The notes under the pieces: generated by a model
Seen by the model: the letters and a program-made list of their open reading frames with translations, nothing else
What the model was told of the DNA's origin: nothing
The model's database searches: none
Made by a program: the position numbers and the translations under genes
Origin: Candidatus Omnitrophota bacterium
Lineage (GTDB): Bacteria; Omnitrophota; Gorgyraeia; DTHP01
Assembly (NCBI GenBank): GCA_037442605.1
Contig: JBBIPY010000003.1
Location: 1-35,736 of the forward strand
DNA: 35,736 nt
Direction: 5' to 3'
Shown: in pieces, positions 3,462-35,635 of the stretch
Position numbering within the stretch: position 1 is the first letter of the stretch
How the letters are laid out: each line of letters begins with the position of its first letter

Positions 3462-4766
3462 ATGGAGTATGAACTAAACGAAAATATCCGGAATCTCCCG
3501 GGCAACATCAAAAGCCAGCAGAAGGAGGCTATTGAGAAATATCTCTTTGAGATGTCAGCGGCTTACTATGTTGCCAGAGAAGCCACTACCTGCGTAGATT
3601 TAGATGAATGTCTGGATATACTGGTAAATAGAATCGCCGACCTGATGTCTGTAGAGATTGTGTCAATCATACTCAAAGAGGATGAAACCGGTATTTTAAG
3701 GATAAAATCCGCCCGGGGAATCGGTGAGGAGATAATTAAACATACCGCCGTAAAAGAGGAAGATGAACCCCAAAGCGTTAGCGGCTGGGTGGTAAGGACA
3801 GGTAAGTCACTTTTAATAGAAGACCTTGCCAGAGACGGGCGTTTCTTGCTTAGAGAAGGAAGGTATTTTAATAACTCCCTTTTGAGCGTTCCCCTGAAGG
3901 AAAGAAGCGGGGTCATCGGGGTAATTAATGTGAATAATAAATCCTCCAGGGAGGTCTTTACTACAGACGATTTGAGTCTATTGACGAAATTAGCGGATTT
4001 TGCCGCTGCGGCTATTGAAACCGTCCGTCAGCAGCGCAGGGATAAGGCCTTAGACAAGATTAGAAAGGAGCTGGTTTCTCATATCTCCCACGAATTCAGG
4101 GTGCCCATTACGGTAATTGACGAGGTCATAGAGATGTTACTGGATGAGATATCCGCTTCGACAAACGAGCGACAAAAGAGACTTCTCGTATTGGCAAAGC
4201 AGAGCACAGAACGCCTGAGGAGGATGATTGATGATTGGCTGGCTTATGTGAAGAACGGTTCCCAGGAAATAGAAGCCAAAGAGAAGTTTTTCAACCTTAT
4301 CTCCACCGCCAAACATGTGATCTACTCCATGGATATCCTGGCGCGCAACAAGGGGGTGGTGATCAGGGGGATGTTCCCTTACGATTCCGAACTGAAGATA
4401 TGGGGCAATGAGGACGAACTGACCCAGGTCCTGGTCAATCTCCTGCACAATGCCGTAAAATACAATAAAGACAACGGCAGAGTGGAGGTGCGCTTTGAGG
4501 CCATCGGCAATATAACCAAGATATACATTTCCGATACGGGGATAGGCATTCCTGAGGAATCGCTGGATAAAATTTTCAATAAATATAATCGGGAAGGAGC
4601 AGCGATAGAAAATAATTTTGAAAGTTACGGCTTAGGACTTTATATCTCCAGAGAAATTGTGCGCAGGCATGGCGGAGAAATATCGGCAACCTCGCAACTC
4701 GGGGAAGGAAGCACTTTTGTGGTAACCCTTCCCAATCCTCAGCCCTCGGCGTATAAAATGCGATAG
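3462..4766 (+). CDS. Cytoplasmic GAF-domain sensor histidine kinase
   Basis: No TM segments. GAF-like region (VSGWVVRTGKSLLIEDLARD...GVINVNNK). H-box SHISHEFRVPIT, N-box LLHNAVKYN, G-boxes DTGIGI and GLGLYISREIV. Confidence 0.85.
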   Translation: MEYELNENIRNLPGNIKSQQKEAIEKYLFEMSAAYYVAREATTCVDLDECLDILVNRIADLMSVEIVSIILKEDETGILRIKSARGIGEEIIKHTAVKEEDEPQSVSGWVVRTGKSLLIEDLARDGRFLLREGRYFNNSLLSVPLKERSGVIGVINVNNKSSREVFTTDDLSLLTKLADFAAAAIETVRQQRRDKALDKIRKELVSHISHEFRVPITVIDEVIEMLLDEISASTNERQKRLLVLAKQSTERLRRMIDDWLAYVKNGSQEIEAKEKFFNLISTAKHVIYSMDILARNKGVVIRGMFPYDSELKIWGNEDELTQVLVNLLHNAVKYNKDNGRVEVRFEAIGNITKIYISDTGIGIPEESLDKIFNKYNREGAAIENNFESYGLGLYISREIVRRHGGEISATSQLGEGSTFVVTLPNPQPSAYKMR

Positions 4767-21301: not shown

Positions 21302-21306
21302 ATGAA

Positions 21307-21336
21307 GGGGGCGGAGAAATTCGCCCCCCTTTTTTA
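21307..21336 (+). terminator. Rho-independent terminator, member 1 of a reused hairpin family
   Basis: GGGGGCGgagaaattCGCCCCCcTTTTTTaTTTTT. Confidence 0.75.
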
Positions 21337-21371
21337 TTTTTACACGGCCGAGCCGTCTCCCAAAATAAAAC

Positions 21372-22028: not shown

Positions 22029-22047
22029 ACCCACTACTAAAGATGAA

Positions 22048-22076
22048 GGGGGGCGAAGAAATTCGCCCCTTTTTTA
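22048..22076 (+). terminator. Rho-independent terminator, member 2 of the reused hairpin family
   Basis: GGGGGGCGaagaaattCGCCCCTTTTTTat. Confidence 0.75.
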
Positions 22077-22079
22077 TCC

Positions 22080-22108
22080 TTGACATTGTTCCTTAGCCGG
22101 GCTATACT
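22080..22108 (+). promoter_or_regulatory. Sigma70 promoter of the second TA cassette
   Basis: TTGACA (22080-22085), 17-nt spacer, TATACT (22103-22108). Confidence 0.6.
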
Positions 22109-22699: not shown

Positions 22700-22730
22700 A
22701 TTTAATACCCCCCATTACGCATAAGTAGAA

Positions 22731-22765
22731 GGGGGCGAGAAAATTCGCCCCTGTTTATTTTTCTC
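22731..22765 (+). terminator. Rho-independent terminator, member 3 of the reused hairpin family
   Basis: GGGGGCGagaaaattCGCCCCtgTTTaTTTTT. Confidence 0.7.
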
Positions 22766-24210: not shown

Positions 24211-24282
24211 GACACGAATCCCGCGCGAACAGCCGCGAATTATTTAATTTGACAAATAGAGTTCAACTTAAAGTGTAAAGTT

Positions 24283-24825
24283 ATGAGGGGATGGCAGAAA
24301 AAAGCGGTTTTTTTTGCCTTTTTTTTATCGGCGACGAGCGTTATTTCTGCTCAAGAGAGAAGAATCGATGGGACTTATTTTAGCATCTATTATCAGACCG
24401 GCCTTGACCCCTTAGAGATAGCCCGTCAACTTGACTTTTCCTCCCCCCATCTCCTGACAGGGGTTTACAGCAGTAATCCCGAGAGCACCTTAGCTAAAAC
24501 AGTGGATGCCCTTTTTTTAGAGGTTTCAGATATTTTAGATATCCATCTGTATAGTTTTAAAGGCAACCTAAGAATATTTCGTGACTTCCAGGCATTAAAT
24601 GCCGCCTTCTACGGGTTATATCGCCAGAGCCTGAAGACTTCATCTTTCTATGTTTACGATACAAATACGATTTATATTGCTGCGGATAATCTAAGGGTAG
24701 GCATTCTGGGGCATGAGATGGCCCACGCCATTATAAACCATTATTTTGTCGTTTCCCCTCCCGTGAAGGTCCAGGAGGTCCTTGCCGGTTATGTGGAATA
24801 TATACTTAACAAAAAAGCCAAGTAG
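24283..24825 (+). CDS. Exported HExxH-motif protein (putative small zinc metallopeptidase)
   Basis: Signal peptide MRGWQKKAVFFAFFLSATSVISA|QE. Motif GILGHEMAHAIINHY. Confidence 0.5.
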   Translation: MRGWQKKAVFFAFFLSATSVISAQERRIDGTYFSIYYQTGLDPLEIARQLDFSSPHLLTGVYSSNPESTLAKTVDALFLEVSDILDIHLYSFKGNLRIFRDFQALNAAFYGLYRQSLKTSSFYVYDTNTIYIAADNLRVGILGHEMAHAIINHYFVVSPPVKVQEVLAGYVEYILNKKAK

Positions 24826-24915: not shown

Positions 24916-25734
24916 ATGAAGACCGGAACGGATAAATTCTTAGAAGTGGCTATTCGCTCAGCAGAAAGGGCAGGAAAAATTTTAAAAGAAAATTTTGGCA
25001 GGGTAAAAAAGATTCAATCCAAAGGCAACCAACAGCTGGTGAGCAATGTGGATTTAGAAGCGGAGCGGGTGATTATCGAGACGATAAAAAAACATTTTCC
25101 TGGACACTCCATCCTCTCGGAGGAAAATCCCCGGCTGAATGCCTCGGACTACAAATGGATTATCGACCCGTTAGATGGAACGCACAATTTTGTGAAAAAT
25201 ATCCCCATCTTCGGCACCTCTATTGCCTTAGAATATAAAAAGGCAGTGATTATGGGCGTGATTTATTTTCCTTTGGATAAAAGGCTCTATTGGTCAGAAA
25301 AAGGCAAAGGTGCCTATCTAAACGGTAAAAGATTGCGTGTATCTTCCCGCAAATTATCCGATGCCACCTGTGTCTATGACAGTTCCATTAGATATAATCC
25401 TGAACCGATGACTCTGGTTTTAAGGAATTTATCCACGAAATTATTTAATCTACGGATGTTTGGTTCAAGCGCTGAACATCTGGCTTTAGTCGCTGAGGGG
25501 AGAATTGATTTGGATATCGAATTCAATGATAAGCCCTGGGACTTTGCGGCCGGCGCATTATTGGTTAAAGAGGCGGGGGGTGAATTTACCGATTTTCAGG
25601 GGAATCCCTGGAATGCCTCTATACCTAACTATGTTGCCTCCAATGGCATAATTCATCGGGAGGTACTTGAGGTTATAAAATCCGGCTTAAGTTTACCCCG
25701 AACCACAGAAAGCCACGGCTGTAAACCCCGTTAG
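24916..25734 (+). CDS. suhB: Inositol monophosphatase family protein (SuhB-like)
   Basis: Motifs LSEE, WIIDPLDGTHNF, WDFAAG. The last ~16 codons (LSLPRTTESHGCKPR*) are encoded by the 98-nt repeat element. Confidence 0.85.
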   Translation: MKTGTDKFLEVAIRSAERAGKILKENFGRVKKIQSKGNQQLVSNVDLEAERVIIETIKKHFPGHSILSEENPRLNASDYKWIIDPLDGTHNFVKNIPIFGTSIALEYKKAVIMGVIYFPLDKRLYWSEKGKGAYLNGKRLRVSSRKLSDATCVYDSSIRYNPEPMTLVLRNLSTKLFNLRMFGSSAEHLALVAEGRIDLDIEFNDKPWDFAAGALLVKEAGGEFTDFQGNPWNASIPNYVASNGIIHREVLEVIKSGLSLPRTTESHGCKPR

Positions 25735-25809
25735 AAATTTTTATTTCTAACGGGGTAAAGCCGTGGTTCGGGGTTTACACTTTAGTCCGTGACTGAAATG
25801 TAAACTTAG
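25687..25809 (+). mobile_element. MITE-like palindromic element, copy 1 (98-nt core 25687-25784 plus a ~25-nt related tail)
   Basis: Identical to 26297-26394 over 98 nt. Terminal inverted repeats are TTAAGTTTACCCCGAACCAC and, on the reverse complement, TAAAGTGTAAACCCCGAACCAC. The inner stem is a perfect 14 bp: ACCCCGTTAGAAAT-tttt-ATTTCTAACGGGGT. Confidence 0.65.
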
Positions 25810-25844
25810 AAAAGGGGCTGCTAGGTTGATGAAAGGAGGGGGGG

Positions 25845-26198
25845 ATGGATGAGAGATTGGTTTTAGAGAGCGAAGAACTGGAATTGCATAGACAGAGGCT
25901 GATGTCAGAGGCAGAGAAACTGGTTGCGGTAGTGCGGCAGAGAGAAGAGAAAATAGGAGGCATTGAGAAGGAACTTAATGATGCCCAGTGGTATTTGGGA
26001 GAAGAGAGAACGAAAAGGGCAGACTTGGAAAATAAAATGAGATGGCTTGAGCAGAAATGCCAGGATTTTGAATCTCAGATTCACCACCTGAGGACGGAGT
26101 GCGAGCGCCTCCAGAAGGAGCTCTCCGATAGCCAATGGTATCTGGGCGAGGAGCGCGCCAGGAGACAGGAAATAGAAAGCCGACTTAAGAGTGCTTGA
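25845..26198 (+). CDS. Small coiled-coil protein with an internal QWYLGEER repeat
   Basis: Strong RBS GAAAGGAGGGGGGG before the ATG. Heptad-rich sequence. ELNDAQWYLGEERTKRADLENK and ELSDSQWYLGEERARRQEIESR are repeated. Confidence 0.6.
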   Translation: MDERLVLESEELELHRQRLMSEAEKLVAVVRQREEKIGGIEKELNDAQWYLGEERTKRADLENKMRWLEQKCQDFESQIHHLRTECERLQKELSDSQWYLGEERARRQEIESRLKSA

Positions 26199-26296
26199 TA
26201 GAGAATGCCTGCTCAGAAGCGGATTTAACCCATTAGGTGGTTTTATATCTAACGGGGTTTTGCGTTAACTTCAAATCCGAGTTGCGGGCTGTAATA

Positions 26297-26419
26297 TTAA
26301 GTTTACCCCGAACCACAGAAAGCCACGGCTGTAAACCCCGTTAGAAATTTTTATTTCTAACGGGGTAAAGCCGTGGTTCGGGGTTTACACTTTATTCCAT
26401 GAATGAAATGTAAAGTTAG
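26297..26419 (+). mobile_element. MITE-like palindromic element, copy 2
   Basis: 98/98 identity with copy 1, then 21/25 in the tail. The tail reaches the stop codon of the convergent minus-strand gene. Confidence 0.65.
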
Positions 26420-27657
26420 GGAATCGGGAGATAATCAAGGCCTAACTGCCGTAATCTTTGTTCGAACGCTTGAATCCATTCGCTTAAAGACTTAAGTGCC
26501 ATATATAAATCTCCTCGGATTGCCAATTCTTGTTCTATATCTGTGACTCCCACTGAAACTATACGGTTTACGGCCTCACTTATAGTTTTTTCTCCCAGGG
26601 TTATATCAAGGGGTGCAACCTGATTTCCCCAGACTTTTTCTTCAAAATATCCTATACGCAAGCCTGCCTCTAATATGCGTTTCATTAATTTGAAATGCCA
26701 ATACATTTCATTGTTGAACTTCTGAGACAACTCGTGAAGACGATATTCTTCTTCCTCGCTGAGGTTTTCCCGTTTTCTTAGCGCAAACAGCTCTTCTGTT
26801 TCTTCCTTTGCGAGTTTGTTTGCCTGGAGTTTCTCTCCCATCAAATAAGCACTTCCAATCATATCTTTTATAGAGGCATGCCATGCCCATATAGGAGGGC
26901 TGTCCATTATCCAAGCCGTGCCGCCAAGGGTTATTCCCAAACCTCTTATAGACATGGCAGCCAGGATTGTTTGTTGGTTGTGAGGGTTTTTATAATCTAC
27001 GCCTGCCTGGGTAAGGCGTTTATCGCCAATTATAATAATGCTTAAAAGAGGCGGTGCGCGGGGATTGTCCCCAAAGAGGAATTTTCTGTCCTCAGGGGTA
27101 AGCTCACGTCCAACTTTTTTATATACATCGGAGTCTTTTAATATTATTACAAGATCAAAATCATTAGGAACAGATACCTCTTCGACAGGGTTTTGTGTTT
27201 TAAATCCCCAGAGAAAGCTGCCCTCTAGCATAACACTTAATATCTTGCCCTCTACATCTTCAAGCGTCTCTTTTATGGGTTCACCTGTGATGGCACCGCG
27301 CATATTTCTATTTAGCCATTGTGCGAGCTTCTGGGGGAATTGCTGCAAATTAATAGAGAGGATTCTTTTTTCTACCTCATTTTTTGCAGTCATCTCAAAT
27401 ATATCCCAGTAGTAATTATTAGATTCGAGTGTCCGGTGTATCTCTTCGGGCGAGATAGGGATTAAACCCCGATTTTCAGAAGAGGGTTTTAAAATCCAGG
27501 CTTGATGGATATCCCTGGTTCTTCGGAACTCTGAATAATATTTTGCGGAACTGAAATGCGATGGGATGCTTTCAGCATGGGGTATGGGATGGGATATGCA
27601 TTTAAGAGAAAACAAAAATAATGAGAAGTATCCGATAAAAAGATATTTTTTCCTCAT
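26416..27657 (-). CDS. Exported hypothetical protein with a possible Pol-beta-type nucleotidyltransferase motif
   Basis: Signal-like N-terminus MRKKYLFIGYFSLFLFSLKCISHPIPHA. LEGSFLWGF...(x)...NDFDLVIIL resembles G[GS]...DxD. The C-terminal half is helical. Confidence 0.35.
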   Translation of the reverse strand: MRKKYLFIGYFSLFLFSLKCISHPIPHAESIPSHFSSAKYYSEFRRTRDIHQAWILKPSSENRGLIPISPEEIHRTLESNNYYWDIFEMTAKNEVEKRILSINLQQFPQKLAQWLNRNMRGAITGEPIKETLEDVEGKILSVMLEGSFLWGFKTQNPVEEVSVPNDFDLVIILKDSDVYKKVGRELTPEDRKFLFGDNPRAPPLLSIIIIGDKRLTQAGVDYKNPHNQQTILAAMSIRGLGITLGGTAWIMDSPPIWAWHASIKDMIGSAYLMGEKLQANKLAKEETEELFALRKRENLSEEEEYRLHELSQKFNNEMYWHFKLMKRILEAGLRIGYFEEKVWGNQVAPLDITLGEKTISEAVNRIVSVGVTDIEQELAIRGDLYMALKSLSEWIQAFEQRLRQLGLDYLPIP

Positions 27658-31939: not shown

Positions 31940-31942
31940 GTA

Positions 31943-31998
31943 GCAAATGGCAAATGGCAAATGGCAAATAGCAAATGGCAAATGGCAAATGGCTAATG
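31943..31998. repeat. Heptanucleotide tandem array (GCAAATG x8)
   Basis: gcaaatg x3, gcaaata, gcaaatg x3, gctaatg, between the xerC stop and the waaA start. Confidence 0.9.
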
Positions 31999-34391: not shown

Positions 34392-34440
34392 CCCCTCCTC
34401 CTAAGATGATTCTTCTCCTGGGAGGAGGGGTTTCTTTTTT
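34392..34440 (+). terminator. Rho-independent terminator after thi4
   Basis: CCCCTCCTCC-(19 nt)-GGAGGAGGGGtTTcTTTTTT. Confidence 0.75.
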
Positions 34441-34450
34441 CAAAAATCCC

Positions 34451-34478
34451 TTGCCTAAAACTTCTTTTATGCTATAAT
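34451..34478 (+). promoter_or_regulatory. Sigma70 promoter, copy 1 of a reused promoter block
   Basis: caaaaatcccTTGCCT, 16-nt spacer, TGcTATAAT (TATAAT 34473-34478). Confidence 0.6.
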
Positions 34479-34551
34479 CTTCTGCAATGATTCTCCAGAG
34501 TAAATAATCTATCGGCGAGACCATTTTTTAGAAATCTGCGCAGTCTAAACC

Positions 34552-35259: not shown

Positions 35260-35319
35260 GTGGTTGAGTAATATAAATTTTTTCATTGCGCAATCTTTGA
35301 ATTGTCTATCAAAAATCCC

Positions 35320-35347
35320 TTGCCTAATCCTGTCTTTATGCTATAAT
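35320..35347 (+). promoter_or_regulatory. Sigma70 promoter, copy 2 of the reused block, driving tRNA-Phe
   Basis: caaaaatcccTTGCCT, 16-nt spacer, TGcTATAAT (TATAAT 35342-35347), 44 nt before the tRNA. Confidence 0.6.
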
Positions 35348-35390
35348 CTTTCTCACTATTGGCTATAAGTTATTTGCCATTAGCCAACAT

Positions 35391-35463
35391 GCCGAGGTAG
35401 CTCAGATGGTAGAGCGGCGGACTGAAAATCCGCGCGTAGGCGGATCGATACCGCCCCTCGGCA
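35391..35463 (+). tRNA. tRNA-Phe (anticodon GAA), no encoded CCA
   Basis: Cloverleaf folded by hand. Acceptor GCCGAGG/CCTCGGC, D-stem GCTC/GAGC, anticodon stem GCGGA/TCCGC with loop CTGAAAA, T-stem GGCGG/CCGCC. Confidence 0.85.
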
Positions 35464-35612
35464 TTTATTATCGCTTGAAGGCGGTATCGGAAAAAGAGGG
35501 TTTCAGGGAGAAAAAGATTTTTTCTCCCTGAGGAGATAGATCTTACTGCGGAAGGAAGGAAAATATTAAAAGGAAACCATCAGGGTTTCCTTTTAAGGAG
35601 GCCGCAGGCCGA

Positions 35613-35635
35613 CGATACCGCCCCTCGGCATTTAT
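35613..35635 (+). repeat. Second copy of the tRNA-Phe 3' end (23-nt direct repeat of 35446-35468)
   Basis: CGATACCGCCCCTCGGCATTTAT occurs at 35446-35468 and 35613-35635. Weaker similarity extends about 8 nt further 5'. Confidence 0.8.

Follow-up and report, generated by a model that had tools for sequence, protein, structure and literature searches.

Identical copies of a miniature palindromic element, nested in older host palindromes, flank a small gene in Candidatus Omnitrophota

MITEs of bacteria (miniature inverted-repeat transposable elements) are short sequences, below about 400 bp, which lack a transposase gene and carry a short direct target repeat at both ends, and palindromes such as repetitive extragenic palindromic (REP) sequences are among the known insertion targets (PMC3184786). 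Described families include Correia/NEMIS of Neisseria, RUP of Streptococcus pneumoniae, and ERIC/IRU of enterobacteria, all of which are small, non-coding, and bounded by terminal inverted repeats. The target of these named families is TA. Insertion sequences that enter palindromes are known as well, IS1397, ISKpn1, and IS621 being found in REP sequences and bacterial interspersed mosaic elements (BIMEs). Here we describe a family of the MITE kind, named E, two copies of which occur in a 35,736-nt stretch of DNA from Candidatus Omnitrophota bacterium (GenBank assembly GCA_037442605.1, contig JBBIPY010000003.1, positions 1 to 35,736 of the forward strand), referred to below as the window. SuhB homologues also place this DNA in Candidatus Omnitrophota. 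The E family is new and apparently of low copy number, and in the window its members are nested in host hairpins on the two sides of a gene for a 117-aa protein.

Strand-specific systems form the second close comparison. IS608 of the IS200/IS605 family inserts 3' of TTAC without duplicating it, and its excision reseals the donor with TTAC kept. The target is read by an AAAG guide located just 5' of the hairpin foot, and cleavage occurs 19 nt 5' of the foot at the left end and 10 nt 3' of the foot at the right end (PMC5027513; PMC3201880).

A repeat search of the window revealed a 123-nt direct repeat with 97% identity (25687-25809 and 26297-26419). In blastn of the two copies, 4 mismatches were found in 123 positions, all of them within the last 25 nt. 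The preliminary description of this DNA had reported 98 identical nt followed by a tail of about 25 nt at about 84% identity, and this is what the alignment gives, with a tail matching at 21 of 25 positions. A third copy was sought across the 35.7-kb window and none was found, leaving two copies in direct orientation, 610 nt apart. The folding features described earlier are also present. In both copies an inner stem of 14 bp without mismatch is closed by a TTTT loop, and there is a 12-bp outer stem (ACCCCGAACCAC/GTGGTTCGGGGT). CCACGGC can alternatively pair with GCCGTGG, and it is this pairing that the minimum-free-energy RNA fold adopts (-61.6 kcal/mol, z = -8.9; none of 200 shuffles was equally stable). 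In DNA folds both alternative pairings are mixed. On either strand, and as RNA or DNA, the repeat folds far more stably than its shuffles.

The limits of the unit had been drawn differently. Each repeat is composed of two nested layers, a younger mobile element (E) inside an older host palindrome (H). The mobile unit is not 98 or 123 nt long, as first proposed, and instead spans 78 nt (78-82 nt) with TTTA(C) flanks. The sequence TTAAGTTTAC, which had been taken for the outer terminal inverted repeat of the element, belongs, like the 3' tail hairpin, to a separate 41-nt host palindrome. The parts are as follows.

E1, 25696 to 25773, + strand: 78-nt palindromic non-autonomous element (CCCCGAACCAC...GTGGTTCGGGG), identical to E2.
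E1 flanks: TTTA at 25692-25695 and 25774-25777.
E1 asymmetric bulge, 25707-25716: 10 nt, AGAAAGCCAC.
E1 inner hairpin, 25725-25756: 14 bp.
E2, 26306 to 26383, + strand: second identical 78-nt copy, with an empty counterpart in a sister strain.
E2 flanks: TTTA at 26302-26305 and 26384-26387.
H1, 25687 to 25809, + strand: 41-nt host palindrome split by E1, beginning inside the last suhB codons.
H1 parts: left 25687-25696 (TTAAGTTTAC), right 25778-25809 (CACTTTAGTCCGTGACTGAAATGTAAACTTAG).
H2, 26297 to 26419, + strand: diverged second copy of the 41-nt palindrome, split by E2 and intact in the sister strain.
H2 parts: left 26297-26306, right 26388-26419, the last 4 nt overlapping the stop codon of a gene for a 413-aa protein.

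At its termini (CCCCGAACCAC/GTGGTTCGGGG) E has an inverted repeat of 11 bp without mismatch. At 65-78 nt across the family and without an open reading frame (ORF) of its own, E is well within the MITE limit. Since the E copies are recent and the H tails older, 98 identical nt are followed by a diverged tail. The perfect identity, read earlier as the mark of a recent event, thus holds for the core as a recent insertion, whereas the flanks are older and diverged. Likewise, the possibility of an old duplicated and diverged hairpin, which had been named as the outcome that would overturn the mobile interpretation, fits the outer layer, the 41-nt H, but not the core. E is probably a recent MITE that entered two older H copies, flanking a resident gene, at one and the same TTTAC.

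H is AT-rich, with one copy after suhB and the other after the 117-aa gene, and in both copies E sits at the same TTTAC of the left arm. The reconstructed empty H1 folds at -17.9 kcal/mol (z = -3.2). H2 differs from H1 at 4 positions, including one compensatory pair (AGTC..GACT vs ATTC..GAAT). No further H was found in 230 kb of sequence comprising the window and the retrieved loci, and the pair probably arose by an old local duplication. A separate stretch of the window (24269-24284, - strand; ATAACTTTACACTTTA) matches the left half of the unsplit H (TTAAGTTTACACTTTA) at 14 of 16 positions; it lies just 5' of an ATG at 24283, possibly as the remnant of half an H.

Evidence for the mobility of E comes from an empty site. 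The 413-aa protein has one near-identical relative (P0001, 99% identity), encoded on a 1524-nt contig of a sister strain (L022; GCA_964623505.1) that is 99.5% identical to the window over 1427 nt. At the position of the second repeat this contig reads ...ATATTAAGTTTACACTTTATTCC... (second excerpt ...GGGCTGCAATATTAAGTTTACACTTTATTCCATGAATGAAATGTAAAGTTAGGG...), an unsplit H2 without E. Exactly 82 nt are missing (26307-26388, or equivalently 26301-26382), and a single (G)TTTAC is left. The short direct target repeat at both ends of E and its single copy at the empty site are as in other MITEs. The occupied site also recurs. The 117-aa ORF, a small hairpin termed T, E2, H2, and the 413-aa gene follow one another in GCA_964555025.1 (contig L001), and the right junction of E2 is found again in the Logan assembly of SRR11582151 (L032).

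Further evidence was obtained from relatives of E at other loci, which were sought by a scan for the two arms of the element in 185,579 representative genomes and in metagenomes. The genomes gave one match, in a metagenome-assembled genome (MAG) labelled Planctomycetia (L002), and the metagenomes gave 18 loci, 11 of which are E relatives. These occupy about 8 distinct sites whose flanks are unrelated, and L007 among them is the same locus as the MAG match. The remaining 7 metagenome matches and one viral match (L003, L006, L011, L014, L016, L017, L019, and L021) were rejected as unrelated GC-rich perfect palindromes that merely have the arms. Several features that the pattern did not impose are kept in the family, namely TTTA immediately outside both arms, AGAAA(G)CCAC without a pairing partner and confined to the left arm, and CCCCG...CGGGG inner hairpins followed by TAAA. 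TTTA is found at the left end in 9 of 10 sites and at the right end in 8 of 10, and TTAC abuts the left end in 9 of 10 sites, always on the strand of the AGAAA bulge. Two subfamilies of 65 nt and 78 nt are distinguished by their inner hairpins, the window copies being of the long type.

Copies of E lie between genes or at their ends, take either orientation relative to the neighbouring genes, and have no neighbour gene in common, and outside the window each locus has one solo copy. The GC content of the contigs bearing E is 32-36%, compared with 44% for the window, which indicates that the family crosses lineages. A family profile run with nhmmer over the window and the retrieved loci (about 204 kb) yielded no extra copies. 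The other E sites were checked for H-like or palindromic targets and none were present. BLAST of the 123-nt unit against phage and plasmid sequences gave no match, and a one-arm 18-mer scan of viral contigs gave none either. At a distance of 196 nt from its E copy, L002 has a gene for an IS481-family DDE transposase (rve, LZ_Tnp_IS481; 3679-4638, - strand). This gene was considered as a parent of E and rejected, as no ends matching E were detected.

With the precise empty site in the sister strain and the relatives at unrelated loci, the earlier suggestion of a MITE-like core is borne out. E resembles the described bacterial MITEs in its small, non-coding structure with terminal inverted repeats, its long hairpin, its direct target repeats, its intergenic or gene-end location, its presence or absence between strains, and its multiple dispersed copies with unrelated flanks (about 8 other loci in addition to the 2 in the window). 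It differs in being shorter than most, in its apparently low copy number, and in its strand-locked target, TTTA(C) instead of TA, and its hosts are uncultured Omnitrophota and other low-GC metagenome lineages. Like the insertion sequences that target palindromes, E occupies a fixed position within a host palindrome; here, however, the inserting element is itself a gene-less hairpin, and its other copies lie outside palindromes. H, at two sites in 230 kb, does not have the standing of a multi-copy REP family.

The arrangement of the repeats is not an assembly artefact. GCA_964555025.1 breaks at E1, with one contig ending at 25605 (L028) and the next (L001) starting at 25778, one base inside the right TTTAC, and L032 starts at window position 26359. 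The breaks fall at or inside E copies, including in the loop of the inner hairpin. A break at E1 is expected of a repeat, unlike a unique empty H1. Moreover, with H1 empty and H2 occupied just 10-16 nt would be common to both, and on so short an overlap a k-mer graph could not have produced E1 as an artefact. An empty H1 was sought in the other assemblies and none was found, all of them ending before H1.

Several points weigh against E as a recent MITE. E1 is spanned by a single assembly, that of the window contig, and the empty site of the sister strain could be a precise deletion and not the ancestral state. That the 11-nt arms do not vary within the family follows from the search pattern, which required them. 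The copy number looks low, with one intact copy among the 185,579 representative genomes. Decay is suggested by the changes in the short type, where 8 cells are unpaired and 0 pairs are compensatory, and many copies of E may be dead. Lastly, 230 kb of loci yielded neither an autonomous partner nor a transposase whose ends match those of E.

Among the alternatives, a functional structured RNA has the most in its favour. The repeat would then be a regulatory hairpin (a terminator, attenuator, stabiliser, or small RNA) that is under selection and was locally duplicated, with the two pairings acting as a switch. The folds are very stable on both strands, the two mutually exclusive pairings are kept in both subfamilies, and two compensatory pairs occur in the long type. 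Bacterial MITEs and REPs can also act secondarily on transcripts (PMC3184786). The proposal of a structured-RNA module is nonetheless improbable. At gathering thresholds Rfam gave nothing at E, the sole match in the window being a tRNA elsewhere, and at permissive E-values only generic hairpin or miRNA-like models appeared (13-23 bits against cut-offs of 42-376 bits). Covariation is not significant, as the 2 compensatory pairs of the long type are reached by 89 of 500 shuffles, and the short type has 0 compensatory pairs and several broken ones, a value reached by 322 of 500. The RNAalifold consensus of the family contains the outer stem only, which the search itself imposed. Orientation and distance to the flanking genes vary without a shared neighbour gene, and E is present in one and absent from the other of two strains that are 99.5% identical. 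A terminator scan found no U-tract or T-run after E or H on either strand; TTTTG follows T alone. Secondary co-option of E as a terminator or stabiliser may occur and is compatible with a MITE, and it is not needed for the data.

Local tandem duplication of the 123-nt segment, gene conversion, or an assembly error, all without transposition, would account for a pair of copies in direct orientation, 610 nt apart, found just twice in the window. Other short-read assemblies break at the repeat, and H itself probably stems from an old local duplication. For the repeat as a whole this explanation is very improbable. At the divergence of the tail (4/25 to 4/31), 82-98 identical nt would be expected under a single old duplication with a probability of about 1e-5 (0.87^82, our calculation). 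What the empty H2 of the sister strain lacks between TTTAC repeats is exactly E, elements of the E type are found without H at unrelated loci, and an error of assembly is opposed by the short k-mer overlap given above.

The third alternative, a composite cassette, concerns the genes at the locus.

suhB-like inositol monophosphatase gene, 24916 to 25734, + strand: last 13 codons (25696-25734) read from E1.
117-aa coiled-coil gene, 25845 to 26198, + strand: twice-repeated WYLGEE(R/K) motif, resident.
T, 26226 to 26262, + strand: solitary, degenerate hairpin downstream of the 117-aa gene, with TTTTG after it.
Convergent 413-aa gene, 26416 to 27657, - strand: no known domain, stop codon in the H2 tail.

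The preliminary description had pointed to a 117-aa ORF with a consensus ribosome binding site and a hairpin between the copies, and both are present (AGGAGG upstream of 25845-26198). Direct repeats that flank exactly one small gene with its own ribosome binding site and hairpin suggest a unit (E-ORF-E or H-ORF-H) which carries the gene as cargo, in the manner of a composite transposon or of a cassette that entered by recombination at the repeat, and gene content between suhB and the 413-aa gene does vary among relatives. In a related locus (L025) the order is suhB, an SBF-like transporter gene, a gene for a 95-aa protein, DUF498, a convergent gene for a 408-aa protein, dprA, and topA. Its SuhB is 79% identical to that of the window, the 95-aa protein shares 42% identity and both WYLGEE(R/K) repeats with the 117-aa ORF, and identity between the 408-aa protein and its orthologue, the 413-aa protein, is 48%. 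The order suhB-SBF-[WYLGEE]-DUF498 is found in two more loci (L026 and L027), and the closest homologue of the 117-aa protein (50% identity) is also followed by a DUF498 gene. Orthologues of the 117-aa gene with 42-50% identity were found in L025, L026, L027, and L035, and neither E nor H is present in these four loci.

By this comparison, the window lineage kept the 117-aa ORF and lost the SBF-like transporter and DUF498 genes on either side, so that relatives differ here by loss of these two genes and not by gain of the ORF. In the sister strain, the 3' flank of the ORF and T lie beside an H2 without E, and E2 thus came or went independently of the ORF. All other members of the E family are solo. 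The shared neighbourhood without E or H, together with the empty H2 beside the ORF flank, rules out a composite cassette, which we consider extremely unlikely, and the 117-aa gene is by its gene order an ordinary resident and not cargo. H1 and H2 were observed to sit exactly at the two gene-loss junctions (window 25735-25844 and 26199-26415, compared with L025 6784-8549).

The 117-aa protein matched no Pfam family above its cut-off. It belongs to a small family, mostly from Omnitrophota, of coiled-coil proteins of 84-175 aa in which (Q/H/N)W(Y/F)LGEE(R/K) occurs twice (window 25845-26198; L025 7878-8165; L026 7753-8031; L035 235-585). The gene adjoins a DUF498 gene in 4 of the 4 relatives' loci examined and is downstream of suhB in 3 of the 4. 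Over 30 nt, the hairpin T and the inner hairpin of long-type E agree at 80% of positions, the version in L015/L009 being nearest to T, and it may be a relic of E or the source of its inner module. At one position of the T stem the sister strain has G where the window has A, and the G improves the stem.

Integron attC sites around a gene cassette, in a cluster lacking an integrase (CALIN), would fit imperfect, bulged palindromes of about 80-120 nt placed at an interval of about 600 bp on the two sides of a single small ORF that looks promoterless, with a tyrosine recombinase gene 4.6 kb downstream, and this explanation, of negligible probability, is refuted by the missing R''/R' boxes (RYYYAAC...GTTRRRY) at the E ends, the sole GTTAGAA/TTCTAAC pair being in the wrong order beside the inner loop, while the recombinase is XerC by an NCBIfam equivalog (366 bits against a cut-off of 335) and is far below the integron-integrase cut-off (151 against 265), the E family is solo at scattered loci, and the ORF is resident in its neighbourhood.

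If E is a MITE, its movement would depend on a transposase acting in trans from outside the window, in which none was found. E has inserted at TTTAC in the left arm of H, leaving TTTA(C) on each side. Two routes could produce this outcome, for TTTAC at both ends and once at the empty site makes a MITE target duplication indistinguishable from IS608-style abutment to a fixed target. A strand-specific HUH/Y1 route, in which E is peeled and pasted beside TTAC in the manner of IS200/IS605 or of the REP-associated tyrosine transposases (RAYTs), is a serious candidate at somewhat less than even probability. DDE cut-and-paste with a 4-5-bp target duplication is also a substantial possibility, though again not one to be expected outright. 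We slightly favour the HUH/Y1 route because TTTA(C) is strand-locked to the asymmetry of E and an unpaired AAAG stands just 5' of the hairpin foot. The orientation of TTTA(C) is locked to the internal asymmetry in 9-10 of 9-10 independent sites (for 9 sites, two-sided sign test, p ~0.004, our calculation). A non-palindromic target with an orientation locked to the element argues against the DDE route.

The layout of E is TTAC, 12 nt, AAAG, the CCAC...GTGG hairpin, 8 nt, and TTAC. In 6 of 10 unique copies AAAG is directly 5' of the CCAC...GTGG stem, and AGAA(A) is found there in 10 of 10, a coincidence being possible. Copies with an altered guide (AAAA in L004 and AAAC in L002) still have TTAC flanks. 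E shares with IS608, to which its non-autonomous derivatives (palindrome-associated transposable elements, PATEs) and REP/REPIN-RAYT systems are joined in this comparison, a TTAC on one strand and a precise empty site that keeps TTAC. In contrast to IS608, E is a single long hairpin with terminal inverted repeats, and both of its putative cleavage sites are the same tetranucleotide. REP and REPIN elements occur in tens to hundreds of copies with a 5' GT[AG]G, and E is unlike them at least in one representative MAG, where one intact copy was found; the 35.7-kb window contig has 2, and GTGG starts the right-side arm only.

Other results speak against the HUH/Y1 route. E is one long hairpin with a true 11-bp terminal inverted repeat, whereas the ends of IS200/IS605 elements are separate. 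No Y1 or RAYT gene was seen in the ORFs flanking E, four of which were run against Pfam, with the window ORFs partly annotated. A GC-skew test for a bias towards the lagging strand was uninformative, 5 contigs being positive and 4 negative. Separately, the decayed copies were inspected by eye for a strand bias of G·T over A·C mismatches, and no preference was seen. A narrower proposal is that E is a minimal, single-hairpin HUH/Y1 substrate in which one AAAG guide reads the same TTAC at both ends. This is put forward tentatively and is rather doubtful.

Both copies of E add very stable predicted hairpins between genes, and E1 has a further effect on the gene upstream. The window SuhB is 272 aa long and ends ...KSGLSL followed by PRTTESHGCKPR and a stop codon, the latter part read from within E1. 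Without E1 the protein would end ...KSGLSLHFSP and stop inside H1, and in relatives SuhB is 258-260 aa long and ends ...QKSLIK. E1 thus appears to rewrite the C-terminus of SuhB. The extension of gene 3' ends by repeat elements is a known phenomenon (PMC3184786).

Other repeats were noted in the window. Three related GC-rich hairpins lie about 700 nt apart (21304-21338, 22046-22080, and 22728-22762) among small genes that include RHH_3 and PrlF-antitoxin-like genes; two of the three have a T-run (GAAGGGGGCG..GAAATTCGCCCCC TTTTTT), and the three resemble one terminator used repeatedly. At the very end of the contig there is a 23-nt direct repeat with identical copies (35446-35468 and 35613-35635), its first copy overlapping the 3' end of a tRNA gene (35391-35463), as at a tRNA-integration att site. 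A 42-nt repeat with 88% identity (34440-34481 and 35309-35350), ending GCTATAATCTT, is found upstream of the DUF5674 and tRNA genes and is probably a reused promoter. A short tandem array with a 14-nt unit (TGGCAAATGGCAAA) spans 31941-31996, between xerC-like and glycosyltransferase genes.

The structure that had been called the least explainable in the window has an ordinary cause, and its annotation as a cassette or as riboswitch-like RNA should be avoided. E causes contig breaks in short-read MAGs and assemblies of this lineage. If the strand-locked reading of TTAC and AAAG is true, E would be a compact natural substrate for guide-based target choice by HUH enzymes. If the single-hairpin proposal is true, a hairpin of 77-82 nt would hold all that is needed for peel and paste, landing 3' of TTAC on one strand, and E would bridge IS608-type ends and REP/REPIN elements, in Omnitrophota. 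E marks recent transposition in an uncultured, streamlined group, the Omnitrophota, whose mobile elements are poorly catalogued.

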